Source: a virus
DNA length: 64,000 nt
Virus record (IMG/VR): IMGVR_UViG_3300005805_009577
Span: 117,146-181,145 of that record
Reading direction: 5' to 3' (one strand)
Of this stretch, positions 1,788 to 25,291 are shown in pieces; the first letter of the stretch is position 1, and the number at the start of each line of letters is the position of its first letter. A program made the position numbers and the translations under genes. The notes under the pieces were generated by a model. The model was not told the DNA's origin and searched no databases. It saw nothing but the letters and a program-made list of their open reading frames with translations.

Positions 1788-1800
1788 TTTTCGGGGTACG
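1788..1800 (+). promoter_or_regulatory. TTTTCGGGGTACG motif, outlying copy
   Basis: Exact GGGGTACG at 1793-1800 with upstream T-run; followed by AAGGA RBS and ORF 1844. Confidence 0.75.
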
Positions 1801-1843
1801 GCCGGTAGTTGGTAGTCGAGAGAACAATACAAGGAACATTAAA

Positions 1844-2059
1844 ATGGCGTCGGTTATTGTTGGAGAAAATATTGACCGTTTTCGTCTCCTTACTATTGCT
1901 AGTGCTTTGCGACTTGAAAGCAAAGGGCTTAAGGGCAAGATTAAGGCAAGTGTAATTGCTCGACAAATTCTTAAGGCTAACGGAATTGTTCCTGCTAAAC
2001 TGCTGGTAGAACTTTGCGAGCAGTTTAAGAACTTTGTTGTTGAAAAGAACAAGGAATAA
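1844..2059 (+). CDS. small basic hypothetical protein of the GGGGTACG regulon
   Basis: 71-aa ORF, GC-richer codons than flanks, RBS and motif directly upstream. Confidence 0.7.
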   Translation: MASVIVGENIDRFRLLTIASALRLESKGLKGKIKASVIARQILKANGIVPAKLLVELCEQFKNFVVEKNKE

Positions 2060-2178
2060 AGAGTGAATAATAACATTGTTTTTTTACTTGATGAAATTTT
2101 TTACGTTCCCGGCTGGTTGCAGACCCTCTTGATCGAAAGTTTGATTGACGGTAAAATGATTGTGGTTGATTAAAAAAC

Positions 2179-2251
2179 GGCCCCATAGTATAACGGTTCA
2201 GTATATCGGGCTTTCATCCCGAAGATCGGAGTTCGATTCTCCGTGGGGTCA
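2179..2251 (+). tRNA. tRNA-Glu(TTC)
   Basis: Acceptor GGCCCCA/TGGGGTC, anticodon arm CGGG-CTTTCAT-CCCG, GTTCGATTC T-loop; no encoded CCA. Confidence 0.92.
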
Positions 2252-2289
2252 TTTTAAAAATTAAATTAAAAGGTTTAAACGAAAAGCCC

Positions 2290-2302
2290 TTTTCGGGGTA
2301 CG
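2290..2302 (+). promoter_or_regulatory. TTTTCGGGGTACG motif, outlying copy upstream of tRNA-Lys
   Basis: Exact GGGGTACG at 2295-2302. Confidence 0.7.
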
Positions 2303-2377
2303 GTCACTGGTTGACGATGGAAGGAAAGCCCGATATAATTAAAATTTTAAAGTAAAATAAAAACGACAAACAAAACT

Positions 2378-2450
2378 GGGTCATTAACTCAATTGGCAGA
2401 GTAGCTGGCTTTTAACCAGTAAGTTCTAGGTTCGAGTCCTAGATGACCCA
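2378..2450 (+). tRNA. tRNA-Lys(TTT)
   Basis: Acceptor GGGTCAT/ATGACCC, anticodon arm CTGG-CTTTTAA-CCAG, GGTTCGAGTCC T-arm. Confidence 0.93.
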
Positions 2451-2566
2451 CTAATTGAACCGCTGATTAAGTTCAGCGGAGTTTGTCGCGGGTATCAAAC
2501 TATATTCAATAACCGTAGAGTTTATGGGGAAATTTCTGTAAGACTGAAATGTCCCTTTCTGGATAT

Positions 2567-3025
2567 ATGCGTAAAATAGTTTTTCTTGATGTTGATGGAG
2601 TTCTTAACGACCTTCATGTTCTTAGCACTAGAAGCGAACTAGGGACAGAACATCTTCTTAATTTTAAAAGCCTAGTACTTGCAACTAAGTGTGAAATTGT
2701 TTTAAGTAGTAGTTGACGAATAATTGAAGATTGGAAGCGAACTCTTAAACTTGCTTTTAAGGAACATAATATTCCTGTTTGGATAAGTGAAACTCCTAGA
2801 TTAAACAGTACAGATTTCACAATAGTTCCAAGGCGAGATGAAATTTTACTTTGGATAAATGAAAATATAACTGAACCTTCCAAAGTTATTGTATTGGATG
2901 ATGAATGGGATGCTGATATAAATGGACACGGAATAAAGCATATAAAAGACAAATTTATACATACTAGCATGAACACTGGGTTGACACAAGATCACGTTAA
3001 TATTGCTATAAGTTTTTTGTCATAA
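2567..3025 (+). pseudogene. HAD-family (Swiss Army Knife RNA-repair-like) protein interrupted by in-frame TGA at 2714-2716
   Basis: Manual translation: MRKIVFLDVDGVLN...IVLSSS*RII...RRDEILLWI...VIVLDDE...GLT. The stop falls where this family has SS(S/T)WR. Absent from the ORF track. Confidence 0.75.
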
Positions 3026-3037
3026 GAAGAAAAAATT

Positions 3038-3199
3038 ATGAGCCATCCCGACCCACTTTTTGATTATGAAAATTGTGAAGAAAACGATATTGAAGAAAGT
3101 GGAATAGACGGCATAGAAGGTTGCTACGACAAAAACGGATTATTTCACGAATACATGAAAGAGGAAGGTTGGTACGGCCCTTTTGAGGAAAATAAATGA
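3038..3199 (+). CDS. small acidic hypothetical protein (53 aa)
   Basis: ATG 3038 to TGA overlapping next start; 16 D/E versus 3 K. Confidence 0.5.
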   Translation: MSHPDPLFDYENCEENDIEESGIDGIEGCYDKNGLFHEYMKEEGWYGPFEENK

Positions 3200-3399
3200 A
3201 TTACTCTAACGAACACACAACAGATTGGGCTATTGGCGATAAAGATATGGAAACCATCCTTTCTGCCCTTGAACATTATACAGAAAGCATGGTTAAGTTT
3301 CGTCATGTTCCCGGTATGCACGATTATATTACCTATGTTGAAGAATTGTGCCAAAGTATGGAAAATGCTTGGCATCCTAAACAAGAGGAAGAAAAATGA
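3196..3399 (+). CDS. hypothetical protein
   Basis: 67-aa ORF, ATGA-coupled on both sides. Confidence 0.6.
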   Translation: MNYSNEHTTDWAIGDKDMETILSALEHYTESMVKFRHVPGMHDYITYVEELCQSMENAWHPKQEEEK

Positions 3400-3578
3400 A
3401 TACGAATGAAATTATTATTGATAAGATTATGGAAATCATTAAAGAAAACGATGATTACACTGCTGCCGATGTAATCAAAAACATAATGCTTGAATTGGCA
3501 AGTGTTGGTGGAAATGTTGATCGAGAAGGCAGCGTCAATAGAACTATAGATATGGTTTGTGAAGAAACCTTTGGTTAA
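3396..3578 (+). CDS. hypothetical protein
   Basis: 60-aa ORF, ATGA-coupled. Confidence 0.55.
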   Translation: MNTNEIIIDKIMEIIKENDDYTAADVIKNIMLELASVGGNVDREGSVNRTIDMVCEETFG

Positions 3579-3965
3579 AAACATGGTTAAAATAAATTGG
3601 ATAGGATTTGCTGGGGTAGAGAATATAAGAGACTTGTTGAATTATGGAACTAGATTTAATAGTGGTGTGCCATATTCTTTTTTTCGAATTGGACCCATAA
3701 TTATTAAAAAATATTTATAGGAAAAAACAATGACACGCGGAGAAATGATTGAGTTTGTTAATGACCAAACAGAAAAAACCGATAGAGAAAATGCTATCAG
3801 GCTGCTTGCGTATTTTCTTGAACACGACGACCCAGTAAATCCCGAGCTTTATTTTCAGCAAATGGTTGGCGGAGAATAATGGGAAATTATCACTACGATA
3901 TATTACTTTTGCCGGTTATAGTCATGGCAATTATTGCATTGTTCACTAGCCTTAATGATTATTAA

Positions 3966-4190
3966 ATGAGAAATCCTAGTCAATTAATTAATATTCTAAA
4001 TAATAGCAGCGGATCTGAGGGCTTTGAAAAGTTTGTCGATCAACTGACATTTGAAGAAATGACACAAATAATGATGATTGCAGAGTTGATTATCGAATGT
4101 CCTGAGTTGAGCAGTAAAAAGAATATTGATTTTAAAGAATTCTTAAATTATATGCAAAATAAGCGGAAAGCATTTATAGAAAAAAATTAG
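3966..4190 (+). CDS. hypothetical protein
   Basis: 74-aa ORF. Confidence 0.5.
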   Translation: MRNPSQLINILNNSSGSEGFEKFVDQLTFEEMTQIMMIAELIIECPELSSKKNIDFKEFLNYMQNKRKAFIEKN

Positions 4191-4196
4191 ATAGCT

Positions 4197-4838: not shown

Positions 4839-4900
4839 TCTAAAATAAGAAAAGATTTAAATATATGTTTATTTTAAATAAATTCAATCTAAATCTAGGT

Positions 4901-5060
4901 ACGCTATAGCGTTGCATCAGGAATGTATGCCATTGAGCGTACAAGCAACCTGCCGACGCAAGGCAAGGTGCTTTCAGTAACACTTGTTATTGAGATGTGC
5001 GTGAGAGGATTATCTCACGAACTATATTGCGTGGGTTATTATAACCCATTTCTGATGCGT
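4901..5060 (+). ncRNA. candidate multi-stem structured RNA
   Basis: GCATCAGGA(4914-22)/TTCTGATGC(5050-58) encloses perfect 7-bp hairpins at 5000-5019 and 5032-5048; GC-richer than flanks. Confidence 0.35.
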
Positions 5061-5067
5061 TCCCGTT

Positions 5068-5424: not shown

Positions 5425-5656
5425 AAATAAAAAACGCTGAAATTCATATTTATAAAAACCTTTAATTATTAGTATCCATGCTTCCACTTCCGAATAAAAT
5501 TACATTTTTTGAGCAAGAACTAACCAAAAAAACAAAAGAAGAGTTAGAAAAAATGATCAAAGAAATAGAAGAGTATAAGCCCATTAATTGGCTCAGTGCT
5601 ATCGCTAAAACGTCTCAATTAGAAATACTCAAAAAACTACATATAGAAAAATAAAA

Positions 5657-5932: not shown

Positions 5933-5940
5933 GAAATACA

Positions 5941-6171: not shown

Positions 6172-6209
6172 AAATAGTATAAATAAAATAAACACCAGAG
6201 GATTAAATC

Positions 6210-7046: not shown

Positions 7047-7053
7047 AGCATTT

Positions 7054-14531: not shown

Positions 14532-14640
14532 AACATTATTTAATTATTAACCTTAAAAGGTGTTTTTGGGGTACGTCTTAGCGTTGTAAGCCGACACTGG
14601 TTCGGTAAAAGACTGGAATGATAAATTTAGAGGTGATAAT

Positions 14641-14871: not shown

Positions 14872-14890
14872 AATTAATCAAAGGGAATAA

Positions 14891-14929
14891 TTAGTCCCCG
14901 GGTTTTCCGCAAGGAGAACCTGGGGCTAA
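14891..14929 (+). terminator. GCAA-loop hairpin after HTH paralog 1
   Basis: Long stem whose mismatches are G-U pairs on the + transcript plus one bulge; only a short T-run follows. Confidence 0.6.
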
Positions 14930-15021
14930 CCCTTTATTTATTGCTAAAATATAAAGACCTTCTCTGGGTACGGCAGTCTGTTGTCAGGGACGGTAATAAC
15001 AAACATATAAGAGAACCTACT

Positions 15022-15123
15022 ATGGCTATTATGTTTAGTTGGATGCTTTTGATTGCTATTATGGCTACCGTGTTCGGTGCGGTTGATTTTGCCTTTAGCG
15101 TAATCGACCGATACTTATCCTAA
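15022..15123 (+). CDS. 33-aa hydrophobic micro-peptide
   Basis: MAIMFSWMLLIAIMATVFGAVDFAFSVIDRYLS after motif 14965; one TM-length hydrophobic stretch. Confidence 0.55.
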   Translation: MAIMFSWMLLIAIMATVFGAVDFAFSVIDRYLS

Positions 15124-15281
15124 TCTTTATCAGTTTCTTTTACTGATAATAGTTTTTGGAGTTTTTCGTATAGTTGGCCTACAGCACTCATGTCGCTTGC
15201 TTTAAAACATCCGCGTTGTGAAGCAGCGTCAATAATAGCAATAATGTTTCCAATGTCCTGATCGTTTAGTTGATTTTCCAT
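15120..15281 (-). CDS. small hypothetical protein (53 aa)
   Basis: MENQLNDQDIGNIIAIIDAASQRGCFKASDMSAVGQLYEKLQKLL...; convergent with the micro-peptide. Confidence 0.55.
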   Translation of the reverse strand: MENQLNDQDIGNIIAIIDAASQRGCFKASDMSAVGQLYEKLQKLLSVKETDKD

Positions 15282-15303
15282 AAAATAATATAGTTAAAAA
15301 TTT

Positions 15304-15374
15304 CCTAGGTGGAAACCGGTAGGCAAGTCACTCTTATAAGGTGACGACGCAAGGTTCGACTCCTTGACCTAGGA
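15304..15374 (+). tRNA. tRNA-Ile(TAT)-like, atypical D-arm
   Basis: Acceptor CCTAGGT/ACCTAGG, anticodon arm TCACT-CTTATAA-GGTGA, T-arm CAAGG-TTCGACT-CCTTG; D-arm pairs poorly. Confidence 0.55.
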
Positions 15375-15387
15375 CTTAATATTTAGC

Positions 15388-15585
15388 ATGGATACAGCCG
15401 CATATAAACAACTCTACGATCTTTATGTTGTTGCTAAGTCTGAAACAAATAATTTAGACTATATCAACGAACTGATTGACCAAATTTTATTTTTTGGAAC
15501 TGAGACAAACAAGTTGACCAAAACCCATGTTCAAGAACGACTTAAAGATGTGCTTGAATCTATTGAACGATCGCTGCTAAAATAG
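15388..15585 (+). CDS. hypothetical protein
   Basis: 65-aa ORF between two tRNAs. Confidence 0.55.
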   Translation: MDTAAYKQLYDLYVVAKSETNNLDYINELIDQILFFGTETNKLTKTHVQERLKDVLESIERSLLK

Positions 15586-15593
15586 TTTAATAT

Positions 15594-15666
15594 GGGAGTA
15601 TAGTCCAACGGCAGAGACAAAGGACTTAAAATCCTTCAAGTTCAGGTTCGAATCCTGATACTCCTA
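15594..15666 (+). tRNA. tRNA-Leu(TAA), short variable loop
   Basis: Anticodon arm AAGGA-CTTAAAA-TCCTT, GGTTCGAATCC, acceptor GGGAGTA/TACTCCT. Confidence 0.88.
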
Positions 15667-15889
15667 CTTATGCTAGTTCATTTAGAAAACGGTAAAACTT
15701 ATAAAATAGTAGAATCTTGGATTAAAGAAAAGAAAATCTACTATCCTGCCGACATATTAGGTATGAATCTGCCCGAACCAAAACCCAGGTTCAAATTAAC
15801 GCCTAAAGGAATTAAAATAAAAGAATAAGACTCTTGAATCATAAATTTTTTTCTGATATAATATTTTCAATTATAGGAGAAAAAAGTTT

Positions 15890-16120
15890 ATGATGATTAC
15901 GTTTAATCCTGGTAAAAATGAATTATTTACCATGGAGTTTAATCGAAGAGAAGATTGGAATCAATATGTAGAAAGTTTTAATAAAGTTGGTGAGTTGCAG
16001 CCTCTCAACCATCCAGATCGTTTTCCTTGTGTTATGATTTACGATAATAATATTCTTCCGATAGATGCAGAACATAATAAGTACTATAACTTTTTCTTGT
16101 ATTATTATGCGAATGCTTAA
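15890..16120 (+). CDS. hypothetical protein
   Basis: 76 aa, AGGAG RBS. Confidence 0.6.
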   Translation: MMITFNPGKNELFTMEFNRREDWNQYVESFNKVGELQPLNHPDRFPCVMIYDNNILPIDAEHNKYYNFFLYYYANA

Positions 16121-16159
16121 GTTGAGTCCGAACGACAGGTTGGTAATACTTTTAATATT

Positions 16160-16474
16160 GTGGAATATTTACTTCTTAATAGCATTAAAATGAACAGCAT
16201 TGATGAACTTGTATCAAAGGTTCGTGAAGAAATCACCAACCGAGATATTAAAATCTCTCAGCTTAATAATACCATTGAAAATATGTATAAGGCTTTGGCC
16301 AAGATTAAAATAGATCTTGATCGAAGTCTACGAGGTAAAAAGGATGTATTAAACAATGCAATAGCAGCAGTTGAACTTGCTAGAAGCGTTACACCTTATC
16401 ATAATTATTCAACAGGTCAAAATACTATTGACCAACCATATTCAGAAGAAGAAAAGAGTAAGATTTTAGAATAA
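16160..16474 (+). CDS. coiled-coil hypothetical protein
   Basis: 104-aa ORF; true start may be ATG 16190. Confidence 0.55.
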   Translation: MEYLLLNSIKMNSIDELVSKVREEITNRDIKISQLNNTIENMYKALAKIKIDLDRSLRGKKDVLNNAIAAVELARSVTPYHNYSTGQNTIDQPYSEEEKSKILE

Positions 16475-16550
16475 TAAAATTAGCAGCCCCTTTTCGGGGT
16501 ACGGTCTGATAACGGCCCGATAACAACCATCCCTTTCCGCGAGGATACTT

Positions 16551-16751
16551 ATGTTTAATTTTGAAGGTAAGGATTACGAGTTGATCGACGGCAACATTGT
16601 TGACAGCCGTACTTATCTTTTGGTTTGCAACGAAGTTGCTACCAAGATTTGTGAAACTTTCGGCGTTACGATGAAGCAAGAGCAAACTTCGCGGGAAAAC
16701 ATCGACGTTGCTTTTCTGAACAGTCGGATTAAGAACAAGATTGGTGCTTAA
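16551..16751 (+). CDS. hypothetical protein of the GGGGTACG regulon
   Basis: 66 aa, GAGGA RBS, motif at 16496. Confidence 0.7.
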   Translation: MFNFEGKDYELIDGNIVDSRTYLLVCNEVATKICETFGVTMKQEQTSRENIDVAFLNSRIKNKIGA

Positions 16752-16753
16752 TC

Positions 16754-17827
16754 ATGGATAACAAGTTCACACTATCATCTGAAAAACTTGAATCACGACG
16801 GCTGTGTAGTGTAACTAGAGACTTGCTTTATGTTCGGGTGCGGTTTAGCGATCAGGCTAACGCACCTGAAACTATAGAGACAAGCAACTTTATTGTGAAC
16901 AAAACGGCAACTGCTATTCGAGATTTTAGTGGAGGACAAGTTAATCTTTCCACTACTATACGAGATGTAACATTGCCGTATAGGGCAAGTTATTATGGCA
17001 CTAATACTTACACAATTTCTAATCACGCTCAAAATATACTTCGTCAATCTGGACTGAACCTGAATAATTACGAACATAGTAATTTCAGGTACAACAGTCG
17101 TGCAGGATTTTTTGTAGGTTTAGGAGAAGTAGGCGGTAAGATTACTTGGACTAAAGACTCTGATCCGGGTACGCTTATTCATGAAATTGGACATAATTTA
17201 GGATTGCGTCATAGCAGTTTTGTTAATCCAAATAATAATGCTCATCCTTTTGGGCCAGGACGAACTTTTGAATATGGCGATGTATTTTCCAATATGGGTA
17301 ATGCTCGTTATACCGATTGGAACGCAACTCAAAAGTGGGCTTTAGGTTACATTTCAAACAACAGTGTTAGAGCTGTAAATGCTAATAGTTTTAATATCGT
17401 TGTTAGCTCTCATGACAATGCAGCGTTTTACAATAAAAGCGAAGTATATCTAGTTAATATTCCTATTGGTGGTAACAATTCAATATATGCAAGTTACAGG
17501 CGTGATGCCGGCGGTGTTGTGATTCATGTTGGCAATAGTTTTAGGCCAACCGGCGATACTTTAATTGACGGCAATCCGCAAACTGAATTGAGTACAGACG
17601 CTGCTCTTAAACTTGGACAGTCAATTACCAATTTTAGAAGGCCGGGAGTTAGCGACGATATTAGAATTACTGTAACGAGCATTGTGGGCAATCGTGCAAC
17701 CATTAATGTGAACTTCGGTGCAGTCGTACCTAAAATAGCTCATAATGCAAACTTGATTGCTGCATTTGCAAGCATGGCAAACGAACCTGTAGAAAGATGC
17801 AAAATCAGATACCCTGTTAGGTTGTAG
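16754..17827 (+). CDS. zinc metalloprotease, gametolysin/M11-like, with planctomycete-type N-terminal motif
   Basis: HEIGHNLGLRH (HExxHxxGxxH), downstream EYGD...MG; N-terminal EKLESRRL. Confidence 0.8.
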   Translation: MDNKFTLSSEKLESRRLCSVTRDLLYVRVRFSDQANAPETIETSNFIVNKTATAIRDFSGGQVNLSTTIRDVTLPYRASYYGTNTYTISNHAQNILRQSGLNLNNYEHSNFRYNSRAGFFVGLGEVGGKITWTKDSDPGTLIHEIGHNLGLRHSSFVNPNNNAHPFGPGRTFEYGDVFSNMGNARYTDWNATQKWALGYISNNSVRAVNANSFNIVVSSHDNAAFYNKSEVYLVNIPIGGNNSIYASYRRDAGGVVIHVGNSFRPTGDTLIDGNPQTELSTDAALKLGQSITNFRRPGVSDDIRITVTSIVGNRATINVNFGAVVPKIAHNANLIAAFASMANEPVERCKIRYPVRL

Positions 17828-17917
17828 GTTTAAAACTTAAATAAAATTTCAAGAAAACTTAAAGCCCCTTTTCGGGGTACGCTCTTGAAATGTCGGAGAG
17901 TTTACAGGGAGATAACA

Positions 17918-18433
17918 ATGCAACGTAGAAACTTTATCAAAGGCTTACTTGCAAGTACAGTTGCAGGAACTTTTCCAGCAACGGCAGATGCAAGTGATAA
18001 CGTTCAACTTAATCAAAGAATTGTAAATATTGCCCGTGGTGCGATTGGCAAGCCCGGTGGCAATCGTTACAATAGTTGGCTTTTTGGTTATAATGTTATG
18101 ATGGCTGCTGGTGGTCGTGGGCCTTATCATGGCCCGCAAAACCAATATGCTTGGGGTAGACCAATAGGTTGGAATGAACTTGGCCCGGGCGATTATATTC
18201 AAATTGAATCGCCAACTGTTTTTAAAACCCCTCCGCCTAATTGTCGTGCATATTGGGGTTGTAGTGGACGTTGCACTTGGATTGTTTTAAACAGACAAAA
18301 TGGTCGAGCACCTGGAAGCGTACTTAACATAGCGTATATGTATCGTGTGAACAGGGTGCAGGCTGCTAGGATTGACGTTTGGGATAGAACTTGTGGAAAC
18401 CAAATATATCTTTACAGACCACAATTACGGTAA
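17918..18433 (+). CDS. Tat-signal secreted hypothetical protein
   Basis: MQRRNFIKGLLASTVAG...ADA twin-arginine signal; GGAGA RBS; motif at 17874. Confidence 0.7.
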   Translation: MQRRNFIKGLLASTVAGTFPATADASDNVQLNQRIVNIARGAIGKPGGNRYNSWLFGYNVMMAAGGRGPYHGPQNQYAWGRPIGWNELGPGDYIQIESPTVFKTPPPNCRAYWGCSGRCTWIVLNRQNGRAPGSVLNIAYMYRVNRVQAARIDVWDRTCGNQIYLYRPQLR

Positions 18434-18473
18434 TTTTTAAATAATTTTAATAAATAGTTCAAGGAGGATATTA

Positions 18474-18704
18474 ATGAGCGACCGTGATAGTGACAACCAA
18501 GAAAAAGAAAAGAAAAAAGTAAAGTTTAACAGCCGCTTTGCTCGTGCTGTTTTGTTCTATGTTGAGAATGAATATGAAATCGTAATTGAAGAAAAGAGCA
18601 TTGAAATACAAAGAGCAGCGTTAAAGCTGCTTAAAGAACTAAAGGCAGGCGGAAATAACGTTCCTAACACGGCACATGTGATTGCTTATAATATTCCCTT
18701 GTAA
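18474..18704 (+). CDS. hypothetical protein
   Basis: 76 aa, AGGAGG RBS. Confidence 0.65.
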   Translation: MSDRDSDNQEKEKKKVKFNSRFARAVLFYVENEYEIVIEEKSIEIQRAALKLLKELKAGGNNVPNTAHVIAYNIPL

Positions 18705-18914
18705 TTACCAATGATGAATTATATTGGCTATTACAAATCCGCAAGTTATAAAATTAACTAGAACTATTATGAATCTGATACCTAGACTTATCAAAGCCAT
18801 TTCTACGCTTAAAATAGGAATATCAGGTGTATCACTATCATTAGTTCCTATTCTATAATCTATTGTTCTGGCTAATAATAATACAAATTTACTAGATACT
18901 AATTTTCTTAACAT
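18705..18914 (-). CDS. small membrane hypothetical protein
   Basis: 69 aa, GGAGGA RBS upstream on - strand, hydrophobic C-terminus. Confidence 0.55.
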   Translation of the reverse strand: MLRKLVSSKFVLLLARTIDYRIGTNDSDTPDIPILSVEMALISLGIRFIIVLVNFITCGFVIANIIHHW

Positions 18915-19033
18915 AAATCCTCCTTGAATATTAGCTTCCTAATAGTATTTATAAAAAAGAAATAATAAAATTCAATCATCCTTTTCGGGGTACGGCTCTA
19001 GGATACTAGCCGGTAAAACCTGAGAGAAAAAAA

Positions 19034-19282
19034 ATGAACACTATTTATCCAAAAGGTGCATGGAACGTACGGATTAAGGCAAACATTGAAACTTTTCTTG
19101 ATGCCTATTTGACGGTACTTAACAACGGTGGTAATTACGGCGATGTTGCTCGAATTATCGGCTGTGAAATCATTGATGTTCAATTTGCAGAAGTGCGAAT
19201 CCGTGCAAGCGGAGTTAAACTTCCTAGGCTGAATTTTACTGAGGAAAATGATGATCGAGTTGTTATGCTGATGCAGTCATAA
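19034..19282 (+). CDS. HTH paralog, divergent (A)
   Basis: TFLDAY...NGGNYGDVARIIGC...SGVKLPRL aligns with the family; motif at 18987. Confidence 0.7.
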   Translation: MNTIYPKGAWNVRIKANIETFLDAYLTVLNNGGNYGDVARIIGCEIIDVQFAEVRIRASGVKLPRLNFTEENDDRVVMLMQS

Positions 19283-19320
19283 AAATAAATAAAAGACTAT
19301 CACATTATATACCGATTATC

Positions 19321-19356
19321 AAATACACCCGGTCTTTCGACCGGGTGTATTTTTTT
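19321..19356 (+). terminator. rho-independent terminator
   Basis: Perfect 14-bp stem, TTTC loop, T-run after; stem ends 24 nt before motif 19376. Confidence 0.8.
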
Positions 19357-19362
19357 GTTTAT

Positions 19363-19707
19363 TTAAAAGTTTTTTGGGGTACGGTGTATTGACCAATTTT
19401 TATTAAACAAAAAAAGAAAAATTAATCCAGTGATTAAAAACAAGGTCGAATTAGGTTCAGGTACTGGCGTGGGTACCGGTTCTGGTTCTGGTGTTCTTAA
19501 TATCATTGCTAAAAAATACATGCTTTGATCGCTGGCTACAACAGAAGTATCAGCAGTATAATTAAAACTTTCGCCAAGAAGTTCTAAAAAATGATCTACG
19601 TTATACTCAGAATATAAATCAAAAGGATCGCTATACCAATGATAGCCGTTAATATATGATCCTGATGCGTAGCCTATATTAAGCAAATCTATTTCGGCAG
19701 TTTCCAT
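19363..19707 (-). CDS. PEP-CTERM-like protein
   Basis: C-terminal PEPEPVPTPVPEPNSTLFLITGLIFLFLFNK = VPEP + TM helix + basic tail; ATG 19707 with GGAG upstream, start uncertain. Confidence 0.6.
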   Translation of the reverse strand: METAEIDLLNIGYASGSYINGYHWYSDPFDLYSEYNVDHFLELLGESFNYTADTSVVASDQSMYFLAMILRTPEPEPVPTPVPEPNSTLFLITGLIFLFLFNKNWSIHRTPKNF

Positions 19708-19831
19708 AGCCCACTCCAATAATATTATACAAAAAAATAAATTAATTAAAAGATAGAAATAAAGCCTCCTTTTTGGGGTACGTTTTGGGGTTGTGGTTCG
19801 ATTGGTTCTAATAAACAGGAGACTGGTTAAA

Positions 19832-20059
19832 ATGCGAGTTGATGCTGCTACTTTCGTCGATGCTTGGGTCAGTGCTTTCGAAGCCGGTGGCAATCAGAGT
19901 GACGTTGCCCGTACGCTTGGTTGTAGTGCTGCTAACGTGTCGAATCGTGCTAAGAAGTTGCGTGATGCGGGAGTTGATCTTCCCGAACTTACCGTGACTC
20001 GTGGTGTTAAGCTTGACATTGAGTCGCTTAACGCTCGGCTTAAGGCTCGGATTGGTTGA
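19832..20059 (+). CDS. HTH DNA-binding protein, paralog 2
   Basis: MRVDAATFVDAW...SAANVSNRAKKLRDAGVDLPEL; AGGAG RBS; motif at 19775. Confidence 0.85.
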   Translation: MRVDAATFVDAWVSAFEAGGNQSDVARTLGCSAANVSNRAKKLRDAGVDLPELTVTRGVKLDIESLNARLKARIG

Positions 20060-20077
20060 AATTAATATAGGGAATAA

Positions 20078-20117
20078 TTAACCCCTGGGTTTTCCGCAAG
20101 GAGAACCTGGGGGTTAA
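20078..20117 (+). terminator. GCAA-loop hairpin after HTH paralog 2
   Basis: 18-bp stem with three G-U pairs; near copy of 14891 hairpin. Confidence 0.6.
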
Positions 20118-20149
20118 CCCTTAATATTAAAAATACTTTTTGGGGTACG

Positions 20150-20219
20150 GAGGCCGTGTGCGGCCGGTTAAGGGGATCGTCAAGGGTGACCCGTGCGGCC
20201 GATATACCCCTTGACTTTT
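20150..20219 (+). ncRNA. candidate small RNA directly after motif 20142
   Basis: No ORF; GTCAAGGG/CCCTTGAC stem followed by TTTT; internal direct repeat GTGCGGCCG. Confidence 0.35.
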
Positions 20220-20284
20220 AATATAACTTAATTAATCAAAAATAATATGATTTAATAAAATAATCAAAACTCAAGGATGGAGCA

Positions 20285-20647
20285 ATGATTAGTTTACCAA
20301 AGTTTGCAAGGAGGGGAATTTTGTTATATTTACAAATTGCGGCGGCTGTTGTTAGTCTTTTGCTTGGGCTTGCCCAAATGACAAAAGAATCACAACCATT
20401 AATTCAAAAGATGCAACAAAACCATCAACAGGCCGTTGCACAAAAACAAACAGAAAAAGCATGTCGCAAAGCATGTGAAATTGCAAACATGCAGATAGCA
20501 TGGCAGTTTAGGGGGTACGATAGCAATTGGAGATATTATAGCGATCCTAGTGGAAGGTTTTGGGCTAGAGTTAATATTCAAGGCATATATGAGTATTGTG
20601 AAAGCCCGAATTATCAAATTGCAAATAACCCTATAACAATTCGTTAA
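20285..20647 (+). CDS. membrane-anchored or secreted hypothetical protein
   Basis: N-terminal RRGILLYLQIAAAVVSLLLGLA hydrophobic segment; GGAG RBS. Confidence 0.65.
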   Translation: MISLPKFARRGILLYLQIAAAVVSLLLGLAQMTKESQPLIQKMQQNHQQAVAQKQTEKACRKACEIANMQIAWQFRGYDSNWRYYSDPSGRFWARVNIQGIYEYCESPNYQIANNPITIR

Positions 20648-20648
20648 A

Positions 20649-20837
20649 ATGAAAACTAAAAGCGAATATACAGTTCAATTTGATGAACATACGTTAAATC
20701 CCGAAGGACATTATTATATCCTTAAGGACGGCGAAACTTTAATGCTTCCAAAAAGCGATGGAAGCAAGTTACTTCCTACCTTTCCAACTAGAGCGGAAGC
20801 AGAAGAGTATATTCAATTAGTCAAAATACTAAGTTAA
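20649..20837 (+). CDS. hypothetical protein
   Basis: 62 aa, 1-nt gap from previous stop. Confidence 0.6.
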   Translation: MKTKSEYTVQFDEHTLNPEGHYYILKDGETLMLPKSDGSKLLPTFPTRAEAEEYIQLVKILS

Positions 20838-20838
20838 A

Positions 20839-21090
20839 ATGACCATTGCTGAAATTATATACCAACTGAGCAAGTTTGACCCGAACACTAGGGTTGTTGT
20901 TGATGGTTACGAGGGAGGTTTCGATGATCCTAGAATCGTTGAAGAAACTGCCATCATTGACGCTAACTGGACTGTTGTTGATAAAGGGCGTGGAACCGAA
21001 GGCAAACGGCATAATTGGAATGGCCGTCATGATTACGGTACTTGTTACACTGAATGTCATAATACTAAAGTAATTCTTATAGGAAGATAA
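20839..21090 (+). CDS. hypothetical phage protein
   Basis: MTIAEIIYQLSKFDPNTRVVVDGYEGG, a pattern frequent in small phage ORFs. Confidence 0.65.
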   Translation: MTIAEIIYQLSKFDPNTRVVVDGYEGGFDDPRIVEETAIIDANWTVVDKGRGTEGKRHNWNGRHDYGTCYTECHNTKVILIGR

Positions 21091-21198
21091 ATCAAGAATC
21101 ATGCTGGTTTAAATAAAGAATCCTTTTCGGGGTACGGTATTGAGTTGCGGCTGGTTAAGAGACTCTTGACTCCCGCTAATTTTTAATTATAATAAGAA

Positions 21199-21279
21199 GA
21201 TATTCAGTTATGACCACGTAACGGAGGGTACGTTAGAAGTTAAGGACTATGGGCCTTACACGAACTCCTACTGAATATC
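21199..21279 (+). ncRNA. candidate structured RNA downstream of motif 21129
   Basis: Perfect 10-bp closing stem GATATTCAGT/ACTGAATATC, inner GGAG/CTCC and TAAGG/CCTTA stems; no ORF. Confidence 0.4.
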
Positions 21280-21313
21280 CTGCAATACAAAGTTAATAAA
21301 ACGCCACCGCCAA

Positions 21314-21352
21314 CACTCCGAAAGCACTAACCAACAGTTGCGATTAGGGGTG
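21314..21352 (+). repeat. structured repeat, copy 1 (CACYCC-GAAA-GCA...TGC-GAYTA-GGGGTG)
   Basis: Second copy at 21710-21747; outer ACGCC/GGCGT stem 21301-21360. Confidence 0.6.
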
Positions 21353-21462
21353 ACAGGCGTAAAAAAATAATAAATTAAATTAACCAGTATCATTAAAAAG
21401 TCTTTTGGGAGTACGTCCTAAGGTTGTGGTGGTTACGACCCGCGAAACCGGAGCATAAAACA

Positions 21463-21687
21463 ATGCAACTTACATTCGAAGAAAAGACCCTGAAGTATCT
21501 TGATGGCGTGAACATCAACATTGACCTTGGAACTTTCATTGACGAATATATGAAGGCTTACAAGGCCGGTCAGACTAAGGCTGAACTTGGCGAGACGCTT
21601 GGCATCAATCATATTGAAGTTGCGATTATTGTTGACAAGATGGCTAGTTTCGGTGTGAAACTTCCCCAACTTCGGATTCAGATTTAG
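21463..21687 (+). CDS. HTH paralog, divergent (B)
   Basis: GTFIDEYMKAYKAGQTKAELGETLG...FGVKLPQL aligns with the family; GGAG RBS; motif variant at 21408. Confidence 0.65.
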   Translation: MQLTFEEKTLKYLDGVNINIDLGTFIDEYMKAYKAGQTKAELGETLGINHIEVAIIVDKMASFGVKLPQLRIQI

Positions 21688-21709
21688 TTTAACAAAACCC
21701 CAACGCCAA

Positions 21710-21747
21710 CACCCCGAAAGCACTAAGTTACAGTGCGACTAGGGGTG
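21710..21747 (+). repeat. structured repeat, copy 2
   Basis: CACCCC-GAAA-GCACT-loop-AGTGC-GACTA-GGGGTG. Confidence 0.6.
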
Positions 21748-21779
21748 GAAAACACTTGTGAAAGGGTTTGTGAAGCAAA

Positions 21780-21989
21780 ATGAATCAAACCTATAGCATT
21801 CGTATCATTTTCGATGGAAGCAAATATGATACTACGCTTATCTCAGGGTTTACTTATAAGCAAGCATTCGAATATGCTCGTAAGTGTGTAACAAAAGAGA
21901 TTAATTATCTCTTGTTCTCTGGTCGGAATGTGAACATATACGTTGAAAATGATTTGGGAAAAAGGCTTGCAACTTACTACGTATATTAA
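21780..21989 (+). CDS. hypothetical protein flanked by TTGTGAA pairs
   Basis: 69-aa ORF. Confidence 0.6.
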   Translation: MNQTYSIRIIFDGSKYDTTLISGFTYKQAFEYARKCVTKEINYLLFSGRNVNIYVENDLGKRLATYYVY

Positions 21990-22021
21990 ACTTTTTGTGA
22001 AAACATTTGTGAAGAGTCAGT

Positions 22022-22118
22022 AAAAACACTAAAAAAAGCCTAAAAAACACTAAAAAAAGCCTAAAAAAGCTTAAAAAAAGCCAAAAATAAGCTAAAAAAC
22101 AAGCCAAAAAATGAAAAA
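22022..22118. repeat. phased A-tract array
   Basis: A5-7 tracts start at 22022,22031,22042,22052,22063,22073,22083,22094,22106,22114. Confidence 0.8.
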
Positions 22119-22292
22119 TATACTCAATATACTTGCTATTTTAAGTACATTAACACTCAATGGAAGTGAATTTGGATGTACTCTTTGGGCAAATTTAACA
22201 TTGTTTAGGTTCTAATTGAAAGTTAACCGCACCTTTTAGCGGTACGGTAACTGGGTGTGACGGTTGGAACTAACCCCTAGGAGAAGGTTAAC

Positions 22293-22520
22293 ATGCGAGT
22301 TGATGCCAACACTTTCATCGACACTTGGTGCGACGTTTACGACAACGGTGGAAATCAAAGTGACGTTGCAAGGCGTTTAGGTTGCAGTGCGGCTAACGTA
22401 AGTAATCGTGCAAAGAAACTGCGTGATGCCGGAGTTGATTTGCCTGAATTGACAGTTACTCGTGGTGTGAAACTTGATATTGAAAGTCTAAACGCAAGGC
22501 TGCGTGAACGAATCGGTTAA
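22293..22520 (+). CDS. HTH DNA-binding protein, paralog 3
   Basis: MRVDANTFIDTW...identical HTH core; AGGAG RBS; motif variant at 22239. Confidence 0.85.
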   Translation: MRVDANTFIDTWCDVYDNGGNQSDVARRLGCSAANVSNRAKKLRDAGVDLPELTVTRGVKLDIESLNARLRERIG

Positions 22521-22535
22521 ATAAATATACCGAAA

Positions 22536-22565
22536 GTTATACCCGGAGTAAAATCCGGGTATAAC
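22536..22565 (+). terminator. GTTATACCC-type hairpin
   Basis: Perfect 12-bp stem GTTATACCCGGA/TCCGGGTATAAC; identical to 23407. Confidence 0.65.
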
Positions 22566-22697
22566 CGTTTATATTAAAAATCCTTTTAGAGGTACGGCAG
22601 GATAGAACAAGTTTGTGAACTTACTTGTGAAGGTTAAAACAAACTTGTGAAACCTTTTCGGAGTACGGCTACGGGTTAACCCCGGAGAAATATACCA

Positions 22698-22886
22698 ATG
22701 AGCCAGCGAGTTAAAGAGCAAATGAAACGTGATGCTGAAATTCACGCTAACGGCCGGTTTACTCCACGAGATAGAGAAGATGTTAATCGTATTGTGGAGA
22801 TACTTGTGAACCGGCAATTTGCCGTTAGGGTATCATCAGAAGTTGAAACCCAAGTAAACGAAACGATCAAAGAAATAATTAATTGA
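22698..22886 (+). CDS. hypothetical protein of the regulon
   Basis: 62 aa, GGAGA RBS, motif variant at 22660. Confidence 0.7.
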   Translation: MSQRVKEQMKRDAEIHANGRFTPRDREDVNRIVEILVNRQFAVRVSSEVETQVNETIKEIIN

Positions 22887-22893
22887 GAGAAAA

Positions 22894-22923
22894 GATTATA
22901 CCTAGGTTAAACTGGGTATAATC
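22894..22923 (+). terminator. GTTATACCC-type hairpin
   Basis: GATTATACCTAG/CTGGGTATAATC, one G-U pair. Confidence 0.65.
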
Positions 22924-22953
22924 GTTATAATTACAAATTGTTTTTGGGGTACG

Positions 22954-23085
22954 GCAAAAGGTTGCTAAGCCGCCTATGAATAGCACTCGTTAGGTAGTTC
23001 GGATGGGCGACAACTAACGATAAAAGCGGATAGTTATATTACTTGTTTCTCCGTGAGTAATATAATGAAATATAACGGAGACTAT
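22954..23085 (+). ncRNA. candidate small RNA with hairpin and H-type pseudoknot
   Basis: TCGTTAG/CTAACGA stem; 10-bp stem 23034-43/23056-65 whose loop TCTCCGT pairs with ACGGAGA 23075-81; no ORF between motifs 22946 and 23111. Confidence 0.45.
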
Positions 23086-23158
23086 ATTTTAAAAATTAAA
23101 AGTTAATTTTGGGGTACGGTAACTGGGTGTGATCGGTTAACCCTTGGAGATAACAATC

Positions 23159-23389
23159 ATGGCACGAGTTGACGCTGGCAATTTCATCGAAGTGTGGTGC
23201 GACGTTTACGACAACGGTGGAAATCAAAGTGACGTTGCCCGTAAACTGGGTTGCAGTGCGGCTAACGTAAGTAATCGTGCAAAGAAACTGCGTGATGCCG
23301 GAGTTGATTTGCCTGAATTGACAGTTACTCGTGGCGTTAAACTTGACATTGAAAGTTTGAATGCCCGGCTGCGTGAACGAATCGGTTGA
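23159..23389 (+). CDS. HTH DNA-binding protein, paralog 4
   Basis: MARVDAGNFIEVW...; GGAGA RBS; motif at 23111. Confidence 0.85.
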   Translation: MARVDAGNFIEVWCDVYDNGGNQSDVARKLGCSAANVSNRAKKLRDAGVDLPELTVTRGVKLDIESLNARLRERIG

Positions 23390-23406
23390 AAAAAGTGTGA
23401 ACGCGA

Positions 23407-23436
23407 GTTATACCCGGAGTAAAATCCGGGTATAAC
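23407..23436 (+). terminator. GTTATACCC-type hairpin
   Basis: Perfect 12-bp stem. Confidence 0.65.
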
Positions 23437-23570
23437 CGTTTATATTAAAAAACCTTTTAGGGGTACGGCTATAGGTTGACAATTTGATTGGTAATAAAGT
23501 ATAATTAAAAAAAAGATTACTATTGGCTTTTAGGGGTACGGTAGGTTGACGTCTCACAGGAGAAAACGAA

Positions 23571-23639
23571 ATGTATAGGTATTACGTTGATTGCCTTGGT
23601 CGAGTTTACGATATACAGACGGGATTAAGAATCAAGTAA
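23571..23639 (+). CDS. 22-aa micro-peptide
   Basis: MYRYYVDCLGRVYDIQTGLRIK; AGGAG RBS; motif at 23533. Confidence 0.55.
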   Translation: MYRYYVDCLGRVYDIQTGLRIK

Positions 23640-23722
23640 AGTAGGCAAAACTTTTTTGCCGACGACAGTTGTCTTTTTGGGGTACGTTGAGACGGTGGGT
23701 TCAGTCGTCCAGGAGAAACATC

Positions 23723-23797
23723 GTGCGAAATGCAGATAAGGCGATTTTGGCGGTTTCATTCATCATGGGCATTATCGTCGCTATTATAATCGCCTAA
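23723..23797 (+). CDS. 24-aa hydrophobic micro-peptide (GTG start)
   Basis: MRNADKAILAVSFIMGIIVAIIIA; AGGAG RBS; motif at 23679; hairpin follows. Confidence 0.6.
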   Translation: MRNADKAILAVSFIMGIIVAIIIA

Positions 23798-23802
23798 AAG
23801 AA

Positions 23803-23833
23803 GTTATACCCTAGGATAAGCCTAGGGTATAAC
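23803..23833 (+). terminator. GTTATACCC-type hairpin
   Basis: Perfect 13-bp stem. Confidence 0.65.
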
Positions 23834-23913
23834 CGTTGATACTACGAAACCTTTTTTGGGTACGTTATCGGGGTGTCGCCGGTTGAGAGCGACAAACTAA
23901 CGGAGAAAAAGAA

Positions 23914-24144
23914 ATGGCACGGGTTGACGCTGGTAGTTTCGTCGATGCTTGGATGGATGCTTATGACAAGGGTGGCAATCAGAGCGACGTTGCTCGTACG
24001 CTTGGTTGCTCTGCCGCGAACGTTTCGAACCGTGCTAAGAAACTTCGGGAAGCCGGGGTTGACCTGCCTGAACTTCAGGTTGTGCGGGGCGTCAAGTTGG
24101 ATATTGAAAGCCTGAACGCTCGTCTTAAGGCGAGGATCGGCTGA
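23914..24144 (+). CDS. HTH DNA-binding protein, paralog 5
   Basis: MARVDAGSFVDAW...; GGAGA RBS; motif variant at 23857. Confidence 0.85.
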   Translation: MARVDAGSFVDAWMDAYDKGGNQSDVARTLGCSAANVSNRAKKLREAGVDLPELQVVRGVKLDIESLNARLKARIG

Positions 24145-24152
24145 TAACAAAA

Positions 24153-24182
24153 GTTATACCCGGGGTAAAACCCGGGTATAAC
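24153..24182 (+). terminator. GTTATACCC-type hairpin
   Basis: Perfect 12-bp stem. Confidence 0.65.
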
Positions 24183-24223
24183 CCTTTACACACATATACC
24201 TTTTTGGGGTACGGCAAGAGGGC

Positions 24224-24307
24224 ATGGATACTATCATCGCTATTACGTTTGCTTTCGTCGGTGCCGGGTTTATAGGCAAGTATCTTTGGAACGAAATGGA
24301 ATATTAA
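24224..24307 (+). CDS. 27-aa hydrophobic micro-peptide
   Basis: MDTIIAITFAFVGAGFIGKYLWNEMEY; GAGGG RBS; ATG 11 nt after motif 24206. Confidence 0.6.
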   Translation: MDTIIAITFAFVGAGFIGKYLWNEMEY

Positions 24308-24377
24308 ACGAACGGCTACAGCCGCCAAGGCGATGCCGGTCTTTTCGGGGTACGGCGGACATGAGGAGGGCAAAGCG

Positions 24378-24500
24378 ATGCCTCTAGTAAGTGCAATCGT
24401 CTTCTTATTAATCCGTAGCGTATCTGCTAGGCTATATCGGATTAGCCAGGTTCGTTCTGAACCGGTTTATCCAGTTCTTATCGGAGCAAAAGGAAGGTAG
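24378..24500 (+). CDS. 40-aa micro-peptide
   Basis: MPLVSAIVFLLIRSVSARLY...; GAGGAGG RBS; motif at 24347. Confidence 0.5.
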   Translation: MPLVSAIVFLLIRSVSARLYRISQVRSEPVYPVLIGAKGR

Positions 24501-24504
24501 ACCC

Positions 24505-24612
24505 ATGACTATAGATGAAGCAATGGCATTTAGTTTCGTTCGTTATGGCATTATGTCTTACGAAGAATTCCTAGTATGGCTAGCAAAACAGCAGATAGTA
24601 AAGGCTAGCTAG
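24505..24612 (+). CDS. 35-aa micro-peptide
   Basis: MTIDEAMAFSFVRYGIMSYEEFLVWLAKQQIVKAS; GGAAGG RBS; hairpin follows the stop. Confidence 0.55.
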   Translation: MTIDEAMAFSFVRYGIMSYEEFLVWLAKQQIVKAS

Positions 24613-24615
24613 GTA

Positions 24616-24648
24616 GATTACACCCTAGAGAAAATCTAGGGTGTAATC
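24616..24648 (+). terminator. GTTATACCC-type hairpin variant
   Basis: Perfect 14-bp stem GATTACACCCTAGA/TCTAGGGTGTAATC; substitutions are compensatory relative to other copies. Confidence 0.65.
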
Positions 24649-24709
24649 CTAACAATCCCCTGAGCTTTTTGGGGTACGTTACAGGGTTGTCTCAAGGAGG
24701 ATGACAACA

Positions 24710-24874
24710 ATGGAAACAGCAGTTAGCATCGCGGTTATGATGGGAGTTGGATTTGCGGCTGCCCTTGCACAAGTTATTTCGGACATGATGGAAGAAAAGG
24801 CCATTGTCCGAAACAACGAAGACAAGGCTAGGATCATCATGGAAGAATACGAAGAATATACGGAGGGGGTATAA
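24710..24874 (+). CDS. 54-aa single-TM peptide with acidic tail
   Basis: METAVSIAVMMGVGFAAALAQVIS...EEYEEYTEGV; AAGGAGG RBS; motif at 24671. Confidence 0.65.
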   Translation: METAVSIAVMMGVGFAAALAQVISDMMEEKAIVRNNEDKARIIMEEYEEYTEGV

Positions 24875-24952
24875 CATACCCTTATCTGACCTAGAACCTT
24901 TTTGGGGTACGTTACAACATCGTGGTCGATAACACTAACTGGAGAAAAAGAA

Positions 24953-25183
24953 ATGGCACGAGTTGACGCTGCTAACTTCGTCGATGCTTGGATGAACGCG
25001 TATGAGAACGGTGGCAATCAGAGTGACGTTGCCCGTGACCTTGGTTGTAGTGCTGCGAACGTCAGCAACCGGGCTAAGAAACTTCGGGATGCCGGGGTTG
25101 ACCTGCCTGAACTGACCGTCACGCGGGGCGTCAAGTTGGATATTGAAAGCCTGAACGCTCGACTGAAGGCTAGGATCGGTTGA
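24953..25183 (+). CDS. HTH DNA-binding protein, paralog 6
   Basis: MARVDAANFVDAW...; GGAGA RBS; motif at 24904. Confidence 0.85.
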   Translation: MARVDAANFVDAWMNAYENGGNQSDVARDLGCSAANVSNRAKKLRDAGVDLPELTVTRGVKLDIESLNARLKARIG

Positions 25184-25189
25184 ACCTAA

Positions 25190-25219
25190 GTTATACCCTA
25201 GGGAAACCTAGGGTATAAC
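25190..25219 (+). terminator. GTTATACCC-type hairpin, GAAA loop
   Basis: Perfect 13-bp stem. Confidence 0.65.
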
Positions 25220-25291
25220 CCTTTACATGCATATACCTTTTCGGGGTACGGCAAGGGTATGTGGATCGGTTAACCCTAGGAGAAAAGAATC

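Follow-up and report, generated by a model that had tools for sequence, protein, structure and literature searches.

Repeated motif copies in the window

The DNA analysed here, referred to as the window, is the last 64 kb (contig positions 117146-181145) of a 181,145-bp virus contig (IMG/VR record IMGVR_UViG_3300005805_009577; CheckV 78%), and its first 25.7 kb carry a repeated promoter-like motif around the 8-mer GGGGTACG. A preliminary description of the window had counted 26 copies, all on the + strand, had put the number expected by chance at well under one, and had proposed that they are non-sigma70 promoters. We found GGGGTACG without mismatch 21 times on the + strand and never on the - strand, against an expectation of 0.10 (100 dinucleotide shuffles of the window; largest count, 1). 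The prefix (C)TTTTy precedes 20 of these 21 copies as well as six copies with one mismatch (14965, 21408, 22239, 22589, 22660 and 23857), and both the count of 26 and its improbability thus stood. The remaining exact 8-mer (20512..20519, +) lies without the T-tract prefix inside an open reading frame (ORF) of 120 amino acids (aa), is probably non-functional and was not taken as a member.

Alignment of the flanks extended the 8-mer to a 16-nucleotide (nt) block, (C)CTTTTy-GGGGTACG-G, and revealed a second conserved box, GKTG, located exactly 7 nt 3' of the 8-mer; the spaced pattern GGTACG-N7-GKTG occurs 18 times in the forward and never in the reverse orientation. A loosely placed TTTAAA box was found upstream of 48-57% of the sites vs 9.6% of control intergenic windows. 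The extent given in the preliminary description (1788-25250) is right for the window, in which nothing comparable occurs past 25.7 kb (the word at 25688, GGGGTACA, lacks the prefix), but the motif is present elsewhere in the contig. The sites are listed below in window coordinates, which are used throughout unless the contig is named; bits refer to a 16-nt weight matrix built from the 26 sites and used with a cut-off of at least 10 bits.

1786..1801, +, exact copy (1793), 30.1 bits; 71-aa ORF 42 nt on, then tRNA-Glu (2179)
2288..2303, +, exact copy (2295), 32.4 bits; tRNA-Lys at 2378
2311-2339, near-perfect sigma-70-type promoter after the copy at 2295 and before tRNA-Lys
3171..3176, +, weaker intergenic site with the core GGTACG only; others at 4898, 8942 and 21227
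14561..14576, +, exact copy (14568); 76-aa helix-turn-helix (HTH) paralogue next
14958..14973, +, one-mismatch copy (14965); 33-aa hydrophobic ORF next
16489..16504, +, exact copy (16496); 66-aa ORF next
17867..17882, +, exact copy (17874); 171-aa ORF with TAT signal next
18980..18995, +, exact copy (18987); 82-aa distant HTH-family ORF next
19369..19384, +, exact copy (19376), directly after a 14-bp-stem terminator-like hairpin (19321-19352)
19768..19783, +, exact copy (19775); 75-aa HTH paralogue next
20135..20150, +, exact copy (20142); long GC-rich structured leader, then a 120-aa ORF
21122..21137, +, exact copy (21129), then a sigma-70-like promoter (21166-21193)
21401..21416, +, one-mismatch copy (21408); HTH-like ORF of 74-87 aa next
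22232..22247, +, one-mismatch copy (22239); 75-aa HTH paralogue next
22536..22565, +, 12-bp-stem hairpin with T-rich tail, an example of those preceding many copies; an identical one at 23407-23436
22582..22668, +, one-mismatch pair (22589 and 22660), 71 nt apart with a hairpin alone between them; 62-aa ORF after the second
22939..22954, +, exact copy (22946) after a hairpin (22894-22923)
23104..23119, +, exact copy (23111) before a 76-aa HTH paralogue (23159-23389)
23453..23541, +, exact copies (23460 and 23533) on both sides of a perfect sigma-70-type promoter (23476-23505)
23672..23687, +, exact copy (23679)
23850..23865, +, one-mismatch copy (23857); 76-aa HTH paralogue next
24199..24214, +, exact copy (24206); 27-aa hydrophobic ORF with its ATG 10 nt past the 8-mer
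24340..24355, +, exact copy (24347); ribosome site 8 nt past the motif, 40-aa ORF
24664..24679, +, exact copy (24671); 54-aa ORF next
24897..24912, +, exact copy (24904); 76-aa HTH paralogue next
25236..25251, +, exact copy (25243); 80-aa HTH-family ORF (25292-25534) next

Several details of the preliminary description agree with this list. The two outlying copies, at 1793 and 2295, precede the small gene and the two tRNA genes as reported, the ATG behind the copy at 24206 is indeed very close, with GAGGG in between, and no fixed -35-like box was found at the sites.

A cassette island within the window

The copies between 14.5 and 25.5 kb lie in a GC-richer 11-kb island assembled from one recurring unit, which consists of a hairpin, the motif, a GC-rich leader, a ribosome site and a small gene. 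Most copies in the island begin about 20 nt after a hairpin with a 12-14-bp stem and a T-rich tail, the stem sequence of which is conserved between cassettes, and terminator-like sites number 19 vs 8.7 +/- 2.2 in shuffles. On its downstream side, the motif stands 10-65 nt before a ribosome site and ATG, or before tRNA genes. Copies also recur every 70-73 nt in a few places (22589-22667, 23460-23540 and, in a related metagenome contig described below, L022:2847-3064), separated only by a hairpin or host-type promoter and never by an ORF; these repeats may be tiny RNA units or promoter arrays.

The small genes encode a family of 76-aa HTH proteins with ten or more members (window 14641-25534; contig 92992 and 97940). 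Their predicted recognition helix is nearly invariant, its residues being kept across lineages, while the first helix varies, and the structure model (pLDDT 82) adds one helix to an otherwise plain three-helix DNA-binding fold.

Host-type promoters are present alongside the motif. Perfect examples (TTGACA, 16-18 nt, TATAAT) occur six times in the contig vs about 0.7 by chance, a figure that we estimated from base composition; among the six are those at window 23476-23505 (+), 39019 and 39774 (both -). Three host-type promoters stand in tandem with the motif (at rIIA, window 2311 and window 23476). The six perfect sites indicate that the host uses canonical sigma-70 promoters and that the phage has at least two promoter classes. 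Thus, the motif would form a second class of signal beside the host-type promoters.

A short core signal throughout the contig

Scanning the whole contig with the weight matrix returned 45 forward and 0 reverse matches in 181 kb, and for the hexamer GGTACG alone we counted 49 forward and 3 reverse copies. The core can be reduced to RGTACG, and the fuller pattern across the contig reads T-rich tract, RGTACG, 7 nt, GKTG. Of the 64 sense copies of RGTACG from 1 to 145 kb, 53 are intergenic and 11 fall in ORFs, although + strand ORFs cover 79% of this interval and leave 21% as intergenic remainder. No motif copies were found in the last 36 kb of the contig, where genes (sugar transferases and similar) lie on both strands and host-type promoters are seen. 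The G-rich word of the window is therefore the strongest local form of a short genome-wide signal with the core GGTACG.

This signal precedes more than 50 gene blocks in the phage. Outside the island it heads ordinary operons, including that of rIIA, one of two genes (T4-like rIIA and a rIIB-like gene) that recall T4, and more than half of the motif sites are of this kind, at ordinary operon starts without a hairpin. The first genes behind the motif have a higher GC content at third codon positions (0.31 outside the island and 0.43 inside vs 0.24 for other genes; p = 6e-4 and 5e-7).

The palindrome GTAC is rarer in the contig than chance predicts (205 observed vs 498 expected), and similarly so in three of the relatives described below (G001, G003 and G004). 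GTACG occurs 76 times forward and 20 times reverse vs the 205 copies of GTAC; these counts are on a different footing, and the share of GTAC copies belonging to GTACG sites is roughly a third or more.

At two sites, contig 57437-57483 (L011:17437-17483) and window 4898-4942, long hairpins of up to 20 bp (-37.6 kcal/mol) open exactly at the GTACG of the motif, the complement of which closes them about 30 nt further on. Such hairpins might represent small RNAs with the motif in their 5' end.

Conservation of the core in related phages

Cultured phages yielded no DNA-level match to the contig. Exact motif scans of IMG/VR gave single chance-level matches only, and neither single-protein scans of IMG/VR with the phage sigma factor described below or the HTH protein nor a scan with the HTH alignment gave any match. 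Relatives were obtained through an alignment-based scan with the sigma factor and one metagenome scan for HTH homologues. The former yielded large contigs, four of which are listed with the identity of their sigma factor and their motif content.

G001, 136 kb, sigma identity 52%; GGTACG 26 times sense and 2 antisense
G004, 188 kb, sigma identity 42%; GGTACG 46 and 5 times, consensus GTTTCCTCCC-GGTACGCT
G003, 381 kb, sigma identity 47%; a different sense block, AATTGTACCCTA, in 71 copies 20-40 nt before gene starts
G005, 189 kb, sigma identity 34%; no motif found

Reciprocal-best orthologues with aligned N-termini were compared between the contig and G001. Among these 73 pairs, the motif stands upstream of both members in 6, of one in 8 and of neither in 59 (Fisher p = 1.9e-4), and alignment of the spacers shows GGTACG as an island of identity amid diverged sequence. 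Orthologous genes, rIIA for one, have thus retained the core upstream, and each lineage has flanks of its own; the prefixes include CTTTTyGG, GTTTCCTCCC, ACTGTCGG and AATT. No other observation argues as strongly as this conservation that the core has a function and did not merely arise as cassettes were duplicated.

The same evidence bears on the possibility that motif and hairpin serve chiefly in recombination, as sites at which cassettes are shuffled, and contribute nothing to expression. The cassettes are built like the PeSLs of T4-type phages, which have been proposed to mediate modular shuffling (PMC2839356, PMC4122927), their stems are alike in sequence, and metagenome contigs bearing such arrays are short, as repeats predict. 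However, most sites stand at hairpin-free operon starts outside the island and are kept before orthologues, and PeSLs are promoters first, so that the two roles are compatible. Recombination as the main function appears very improbable.

G004 carries about 38 copies of GTTTCCTCCC-GGTACGCT (loci L076-L085) and a minor class with the prefix CTGTTCGT, which resembles the prefix of the L022 lineage. The block of G003 (loci L058-L075, L046 and L047) is present in 71-84 sense copies, mainly at 260-340 kb, before the ribosome site and ATG of small genes, and has only GTAC in common with the motif studied here.

The metagenome scan returned 63 HTH homologues, mostly on very short contigs, and led to seven short contigs (L022-L028) in which the same core is densely repeated, up to 19 times in 4 kb (L022). 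There the core follows another prefix, ACTGTC, and the layout of hairpin, motif and gene is unchanged, a stem-loop directly upstream of the motif being also found throughout L022-L027.

Another possibility is that the motif is the site of a phage regulator, most obviously the HTH family itself, acting either as a MotA-like recruiter of the host sigma-70 holoenzyme or as a cassette repressor. Its DNA-binding fold would suit such a role, and the residues of the recognition helix are constant across lineages as is the GGGGTACG core, the flanks of which vary. The family and the motif also co-occur in this contig, G001 and L022-L028, but by construction, the loci having been found via the HTH gene. 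Furthermore, no TAnnnT lies at the MotA-type distance downstream, where start codons come too close, the motif is not a dyad, and its co-orientation with genes (49 to 3) and fixed GKTG box are more like a polymerase site than an operator. A regulator site is therefore unlikely.

Position of the presumed start and a -10-type reading of the core

Ribosome sites begin 8-10 nt past the motif at window 24347 and contig 19452, and the 5' end of tRNA-Ile in G001 is the 10th nt after GGTACG. Together with the close ATG at 24206, these distances place any transcription start within about 10 nt of the motif and make a downstream -35/-10 pair impossible. The motif behaves as a promoter would: it is strand-specific and intergenic, follows terminator-like hairpins, precedes ribosome sites or tRNAs, and is kept before orthologues. 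We consider it probable that the motif is a promoter of some kind.

A minimal -10 element has the form TAnnnT, and extended -10 promoters of bacteria are independent of a -35 box. The TA of GGTACG is invariant in every lineage. In G004, the hexamer reads TACGCT and has T in its sixth position in 41 of 46 sites; in this contig that position is T in 24 of 48 sites and C in 20, and in G001 it is mixed. In four of 39 G004 sites, TACGCT is preceded at exactly 16 bp by a perfect TTGACA, about 0.08 such sites being expected (example G004 sites noted alongside these four copies: 91050, 108233, 111045 and 135797). TTGACA is not enriched 16-18 bp upstream in this contig or in G001, and its presence at only these four G004 sites indicates that a -35 box is optional and, in this contig, absent. 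To judge from the sequence, TTGACA followed after 16 bp by TACGCT has the arrangement that is canonical for sigma-70-family promoters, with TACGCT as a -10 box of the TAnnnT form. The 71-copy block of G003 contains TACCCT, which also has the TAnnnT form. If the T and A are placed at -12 and -11, position +1 falls on the GKTG box and, in G001, one base before the tRNA. The invariant TA, the sixth-position T of G004 and its TTGACA boxes make the original label of non-sigma70 doubtful; whether the motif is a -10-type element of a sigma-70-family holoenzyme is, in our estimate, an evenly balanced question.

On this reading, the invariant core GTACG would serve as the -10-type element, with GG and the pyrimidine tract (CTTTTy here) as a lineage-specific "extended -10" and normally no -35 box. 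About 6 nt of variable, GC-rich sequence would separate this element from the transcription start, which would fall on the GKTG box, 8-10 nt past GGTACG. In the island, the motif would act as the promoter half of self-contained cassettes made of a terminator hairpin, promoter, leader, ribosome site and small gene.

Alternatively, transcripts might start further upstream and carry the motif in their 5' leader, where it would serve RNA processing, stability or antitermination. Strand specificity is expected from such a role too. The TTTAAA box, often 10-25 nt upstream, might be a weak -10, a good sigma-70-type promoter ends 16 nt upstream of the motif at rIIA, and long hairpins open exactly at GTACG at two sites. 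However, the upstream A/T box stands at varying distances, half of the sites lack it, and between orthologous regions it is the motif rather than the box that is conserved. Moreover, a mean of only 2.7 of the 6 core bases is paired in predicted folds, the start codon follows at anything between 10 and over 60 nt, a spread not readily reconciled with a translational operator, and tRNA genes are also preceded by the motif. We therefore regard a role in RNA as improbable.

Five other assignments were rejected. A downstream TTG box as the -35 would place the start about 43 nt past the motif, beyond many start codons, and the hairpin arm TATAAC as a -10 is absent in relatives, in which the arm reads GGTTAAC. 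Sigma-54 promoters have GG and GC exactly 10 nt apart (TGGCACG-N4-TTGC); here GKTG follows GGTACG by 7 nt, which is the wrong spacing, and GC is lacking. In T4 middle promoters, an activator box at -30 is followed 11-13 bp later by a TAnnnT -10; here the sequence after the motif is GC-rich and unconserved except for GKTG, and start codons are too close for a MotA-dependent promoter. Promoters of N4-type virion polymerases are DNA hairpins with a 5-7-bp stem, a 3-nt loop and recognition bases inside, and the motif does not lie in a conserved hairpin.

A phage sigma factor as candidate reader

The preliminary description had named a phage-encoded RNA polymerase, virion-borne or not, or an unusual sigma factor as the possible reader of the motif. 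A search of the contig revealed a 300-aa sigma-70-family gene with regions 2 and 4 (contig 23328-24230) and, in this incomplete contig, no polymerase of a known type. Homologues of this sigma factor are present in all relatives compared; the closest homologues found, which are not on those contigs, have 63-67% identity, and no close relative was found in cultured phages. Compared with E. coli sigma-70, region 2.4 is unlike that of primary sigma factors at the positions that read the -10 and region 4.2 has the usual residues; no link emerged between the residues of region 2.4 or 4.2 and motif type.

The motif heads a tightly packed operon in this contig, G001 and G004, and in all three the sigma gene closes that operon. 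The operon comprises ten conserved genes here (contig 19478-24230; L009/L010/L015), the first of which encodes a 71-aa four-cysteine zinc-finger protein, and that of G001 has the same first and last genes. This arrangement fits an autoregulated alternative sigma factor and fits equally a sigma factor that is a mere product of the regulon.

This contig, G001 and the 381-kb G003, all of which are incomplete, yielded no T7-like domain, no Rpb1 or Rpb2 domain and no DxDGD two-barrel signature; very divergent polymerases can escape the domain and signature tests used. The search for polymerase subunits that the preliminary description had suggested was thus negative for known types here and in relatives of up to 381 kb, within the limits of these incomplete contigs. 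G003 (348024-361247; L046:12025 to about L047:5245) and G002 contain an ORF of 4407 aa that is rich in Ala, Lys, Glu and Leu and has membrane-like segments and an internal duplication, with no Pfam, PHROG or PDB match. We rejected it as a giant virion polymerase, as its 12-bit match to PF00940 lies in low-complexity sequence and catalytic motifs are absent; it is possibly a tape-measure or ejection protein.

A polymerase encoded in the unassembled part of the genome, as in T7-like, N4-like, crAss-like or phiKZ-like systems, would bind the block of about 25 bp directly and start at its 3' side. The block is contiguous and combines a lineage-specific upstream half with a constant core, as in the T7, T3 and SP6 families, the small genes behind the motif look early (rIIA among them), the sigma gene itself lies behind the motif, and this contig is only 78% complete. 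Against such an enzyme stand the absence of a T7-like domain or DxDGD signature from the three contigs searched, with the weak PF00940 match in an ORF without polymerase motifs as the sole hit, and the perfect TTGACA at 16 bp in G004, which favours a sigma holoenzyme. A phage polymerase as reader therefore seems rather unlikely, slightly more so than the regulator site considered above.

In the sigma-70-family reading, the motif would be read by the multisubunit core polymerase of the host with a sigma-70-family factor, the best candidate for which is the 300-aa phage sigma, driving its own operon as well. Several observations weigh against this. This contig has the sixth-position T in only half of the sites and has no -35 box, and the hairpins that start at GTACG at contig 57437 and window 4898 fit an RNA that contains the motif. 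A sigma gene inside a motif-headed operon needs another route for its first expression, which speaks weakly against the sigma being the only reader. Its similarity does not simply track the motif, since G003, at 47% sigma identity, uses a different block and G005 has none. The genomes compared were found via the sigma gene, so that co-occurrence of sigma and motif is partly by construction and lacks a negative control. Finally, all contigs are incomplete (CheckV 29-79%) and none shows virion genes, so that the missing part may include a polymerase gene. As the relatives were found through sigma in this way, we propose only tentatively, and at somewhat less than even probability, that the phage sigma reads the motif with the host core enzyme. 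These claims rest on sequence statistics, position, conservation and the presence of the sigma gene, from which we infer promoter activity, the start site and the reading sigma.

Comparison with known promoter systems

T4-type phages carry PeSL and PmSL cassettes, in which a stem-loop is followed by an early promoter, a Shine-Dalgarno sequence and a start codon (Arbiol et al. 2010, PMC2839356; Comeau et al. 2014, PMC4122927). The same order of elements is found here, again before clustered small orphan genes in a variable region and with a lineage-specific consensus. However, the promoter of a PeSL is a sigma-70 -35/-10 pair or a Mot box with a -10, whereas here it would be a single GC-containing block without a -35; a sigma-70-like -35/-10 pair was found at only two island sites, in addition to the motif. 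Furthermore, the T4-like rIIA and rIIB-like genes leave a T4-like affinity of the phage only a possibility, as the contig contains neither virion nor replication core genes. We probably see a phage-specific promoter class placed on PeSL-like cassettes, the build of which is known while this promoter element would be new.

The single-element promoters of the phage phiEco32 sigma factor have the 9-bp consensus TAATGTATA (as cited in PMC4331800). On the basis of that citation, phiEco32 resembles the phage studied here in having its own sigma-70-family factor, a short block near -10 without a -35, many operons so preceded and host-type promoters alongside. It differs in that its promoter sequence is unrelated and the sigma factor found here belongs to a distinct family, and the pairing of motif and sigma is only a candidate here.

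Likeness to extended -10 promoters of bacteria lies in the invariant TA, the T at -7 in G004, a conserved block just upstream, the distance to the start and the optional TTGACA of G004. In contrast, GG and a pyrimidine tract replace TGn, the middle of the hexamer is CG, and the T at -7 is not kept in this contig. Promoters of the T7 family share with the motif a contiguous block of 20-25 bp whose upstream part is rich in A/T or pyrimidines, together with a specific core, a G near the presumed start and lineage variants, but the 6-7 nt before the presumed start are unconserved here and conserved in T7-type promoters, and no such polymerase gene was found. A search of the literature, itself limited, retrieved no description of the motif or of the sigma family, and searching for the 8-mer gave primers only.

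If the motif is a promoter, its copies map one transcription class, with more than 50 operon starts in this phage and dozens in each relative. The clade consists of large uncultured phages whose gene timing would otherwise be unknowable, and the motif would give a handle on it. A previously uncharacterised sigma family would be paired with a candidate recognition sequence, and cassette shuffling of the PeSL kind would not depend on host-type promoters or on classical T4-like phages. Moreover, fragments of these phages, the repeat-rich islands of which now break metagenome assemblies, can be found and binned with the core and its lineage prefix as a compact marker. A broader picture, which we regard as speculative and less likely than the sigma assignment on which it builds, is that of a clade of large uncultured aquatic phages with a private sigma that reads a GTAC-centred, GC-containing -10 without a -35. 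The sigma and the flanks would have co-diversified, and mobile cassettes would spread small takeover genes, including an HTH family that possibly binds the core.

Two further genes were noted. G001 encodes a phage tmRNA with a tag ending in LALAA (L041:18451-18803). The contig also contains a full-length gene for an M32 (Taq-type) carboxypeptidase (contig 64577-66025, L012:4577-6025; Pfam E = 7e-148).

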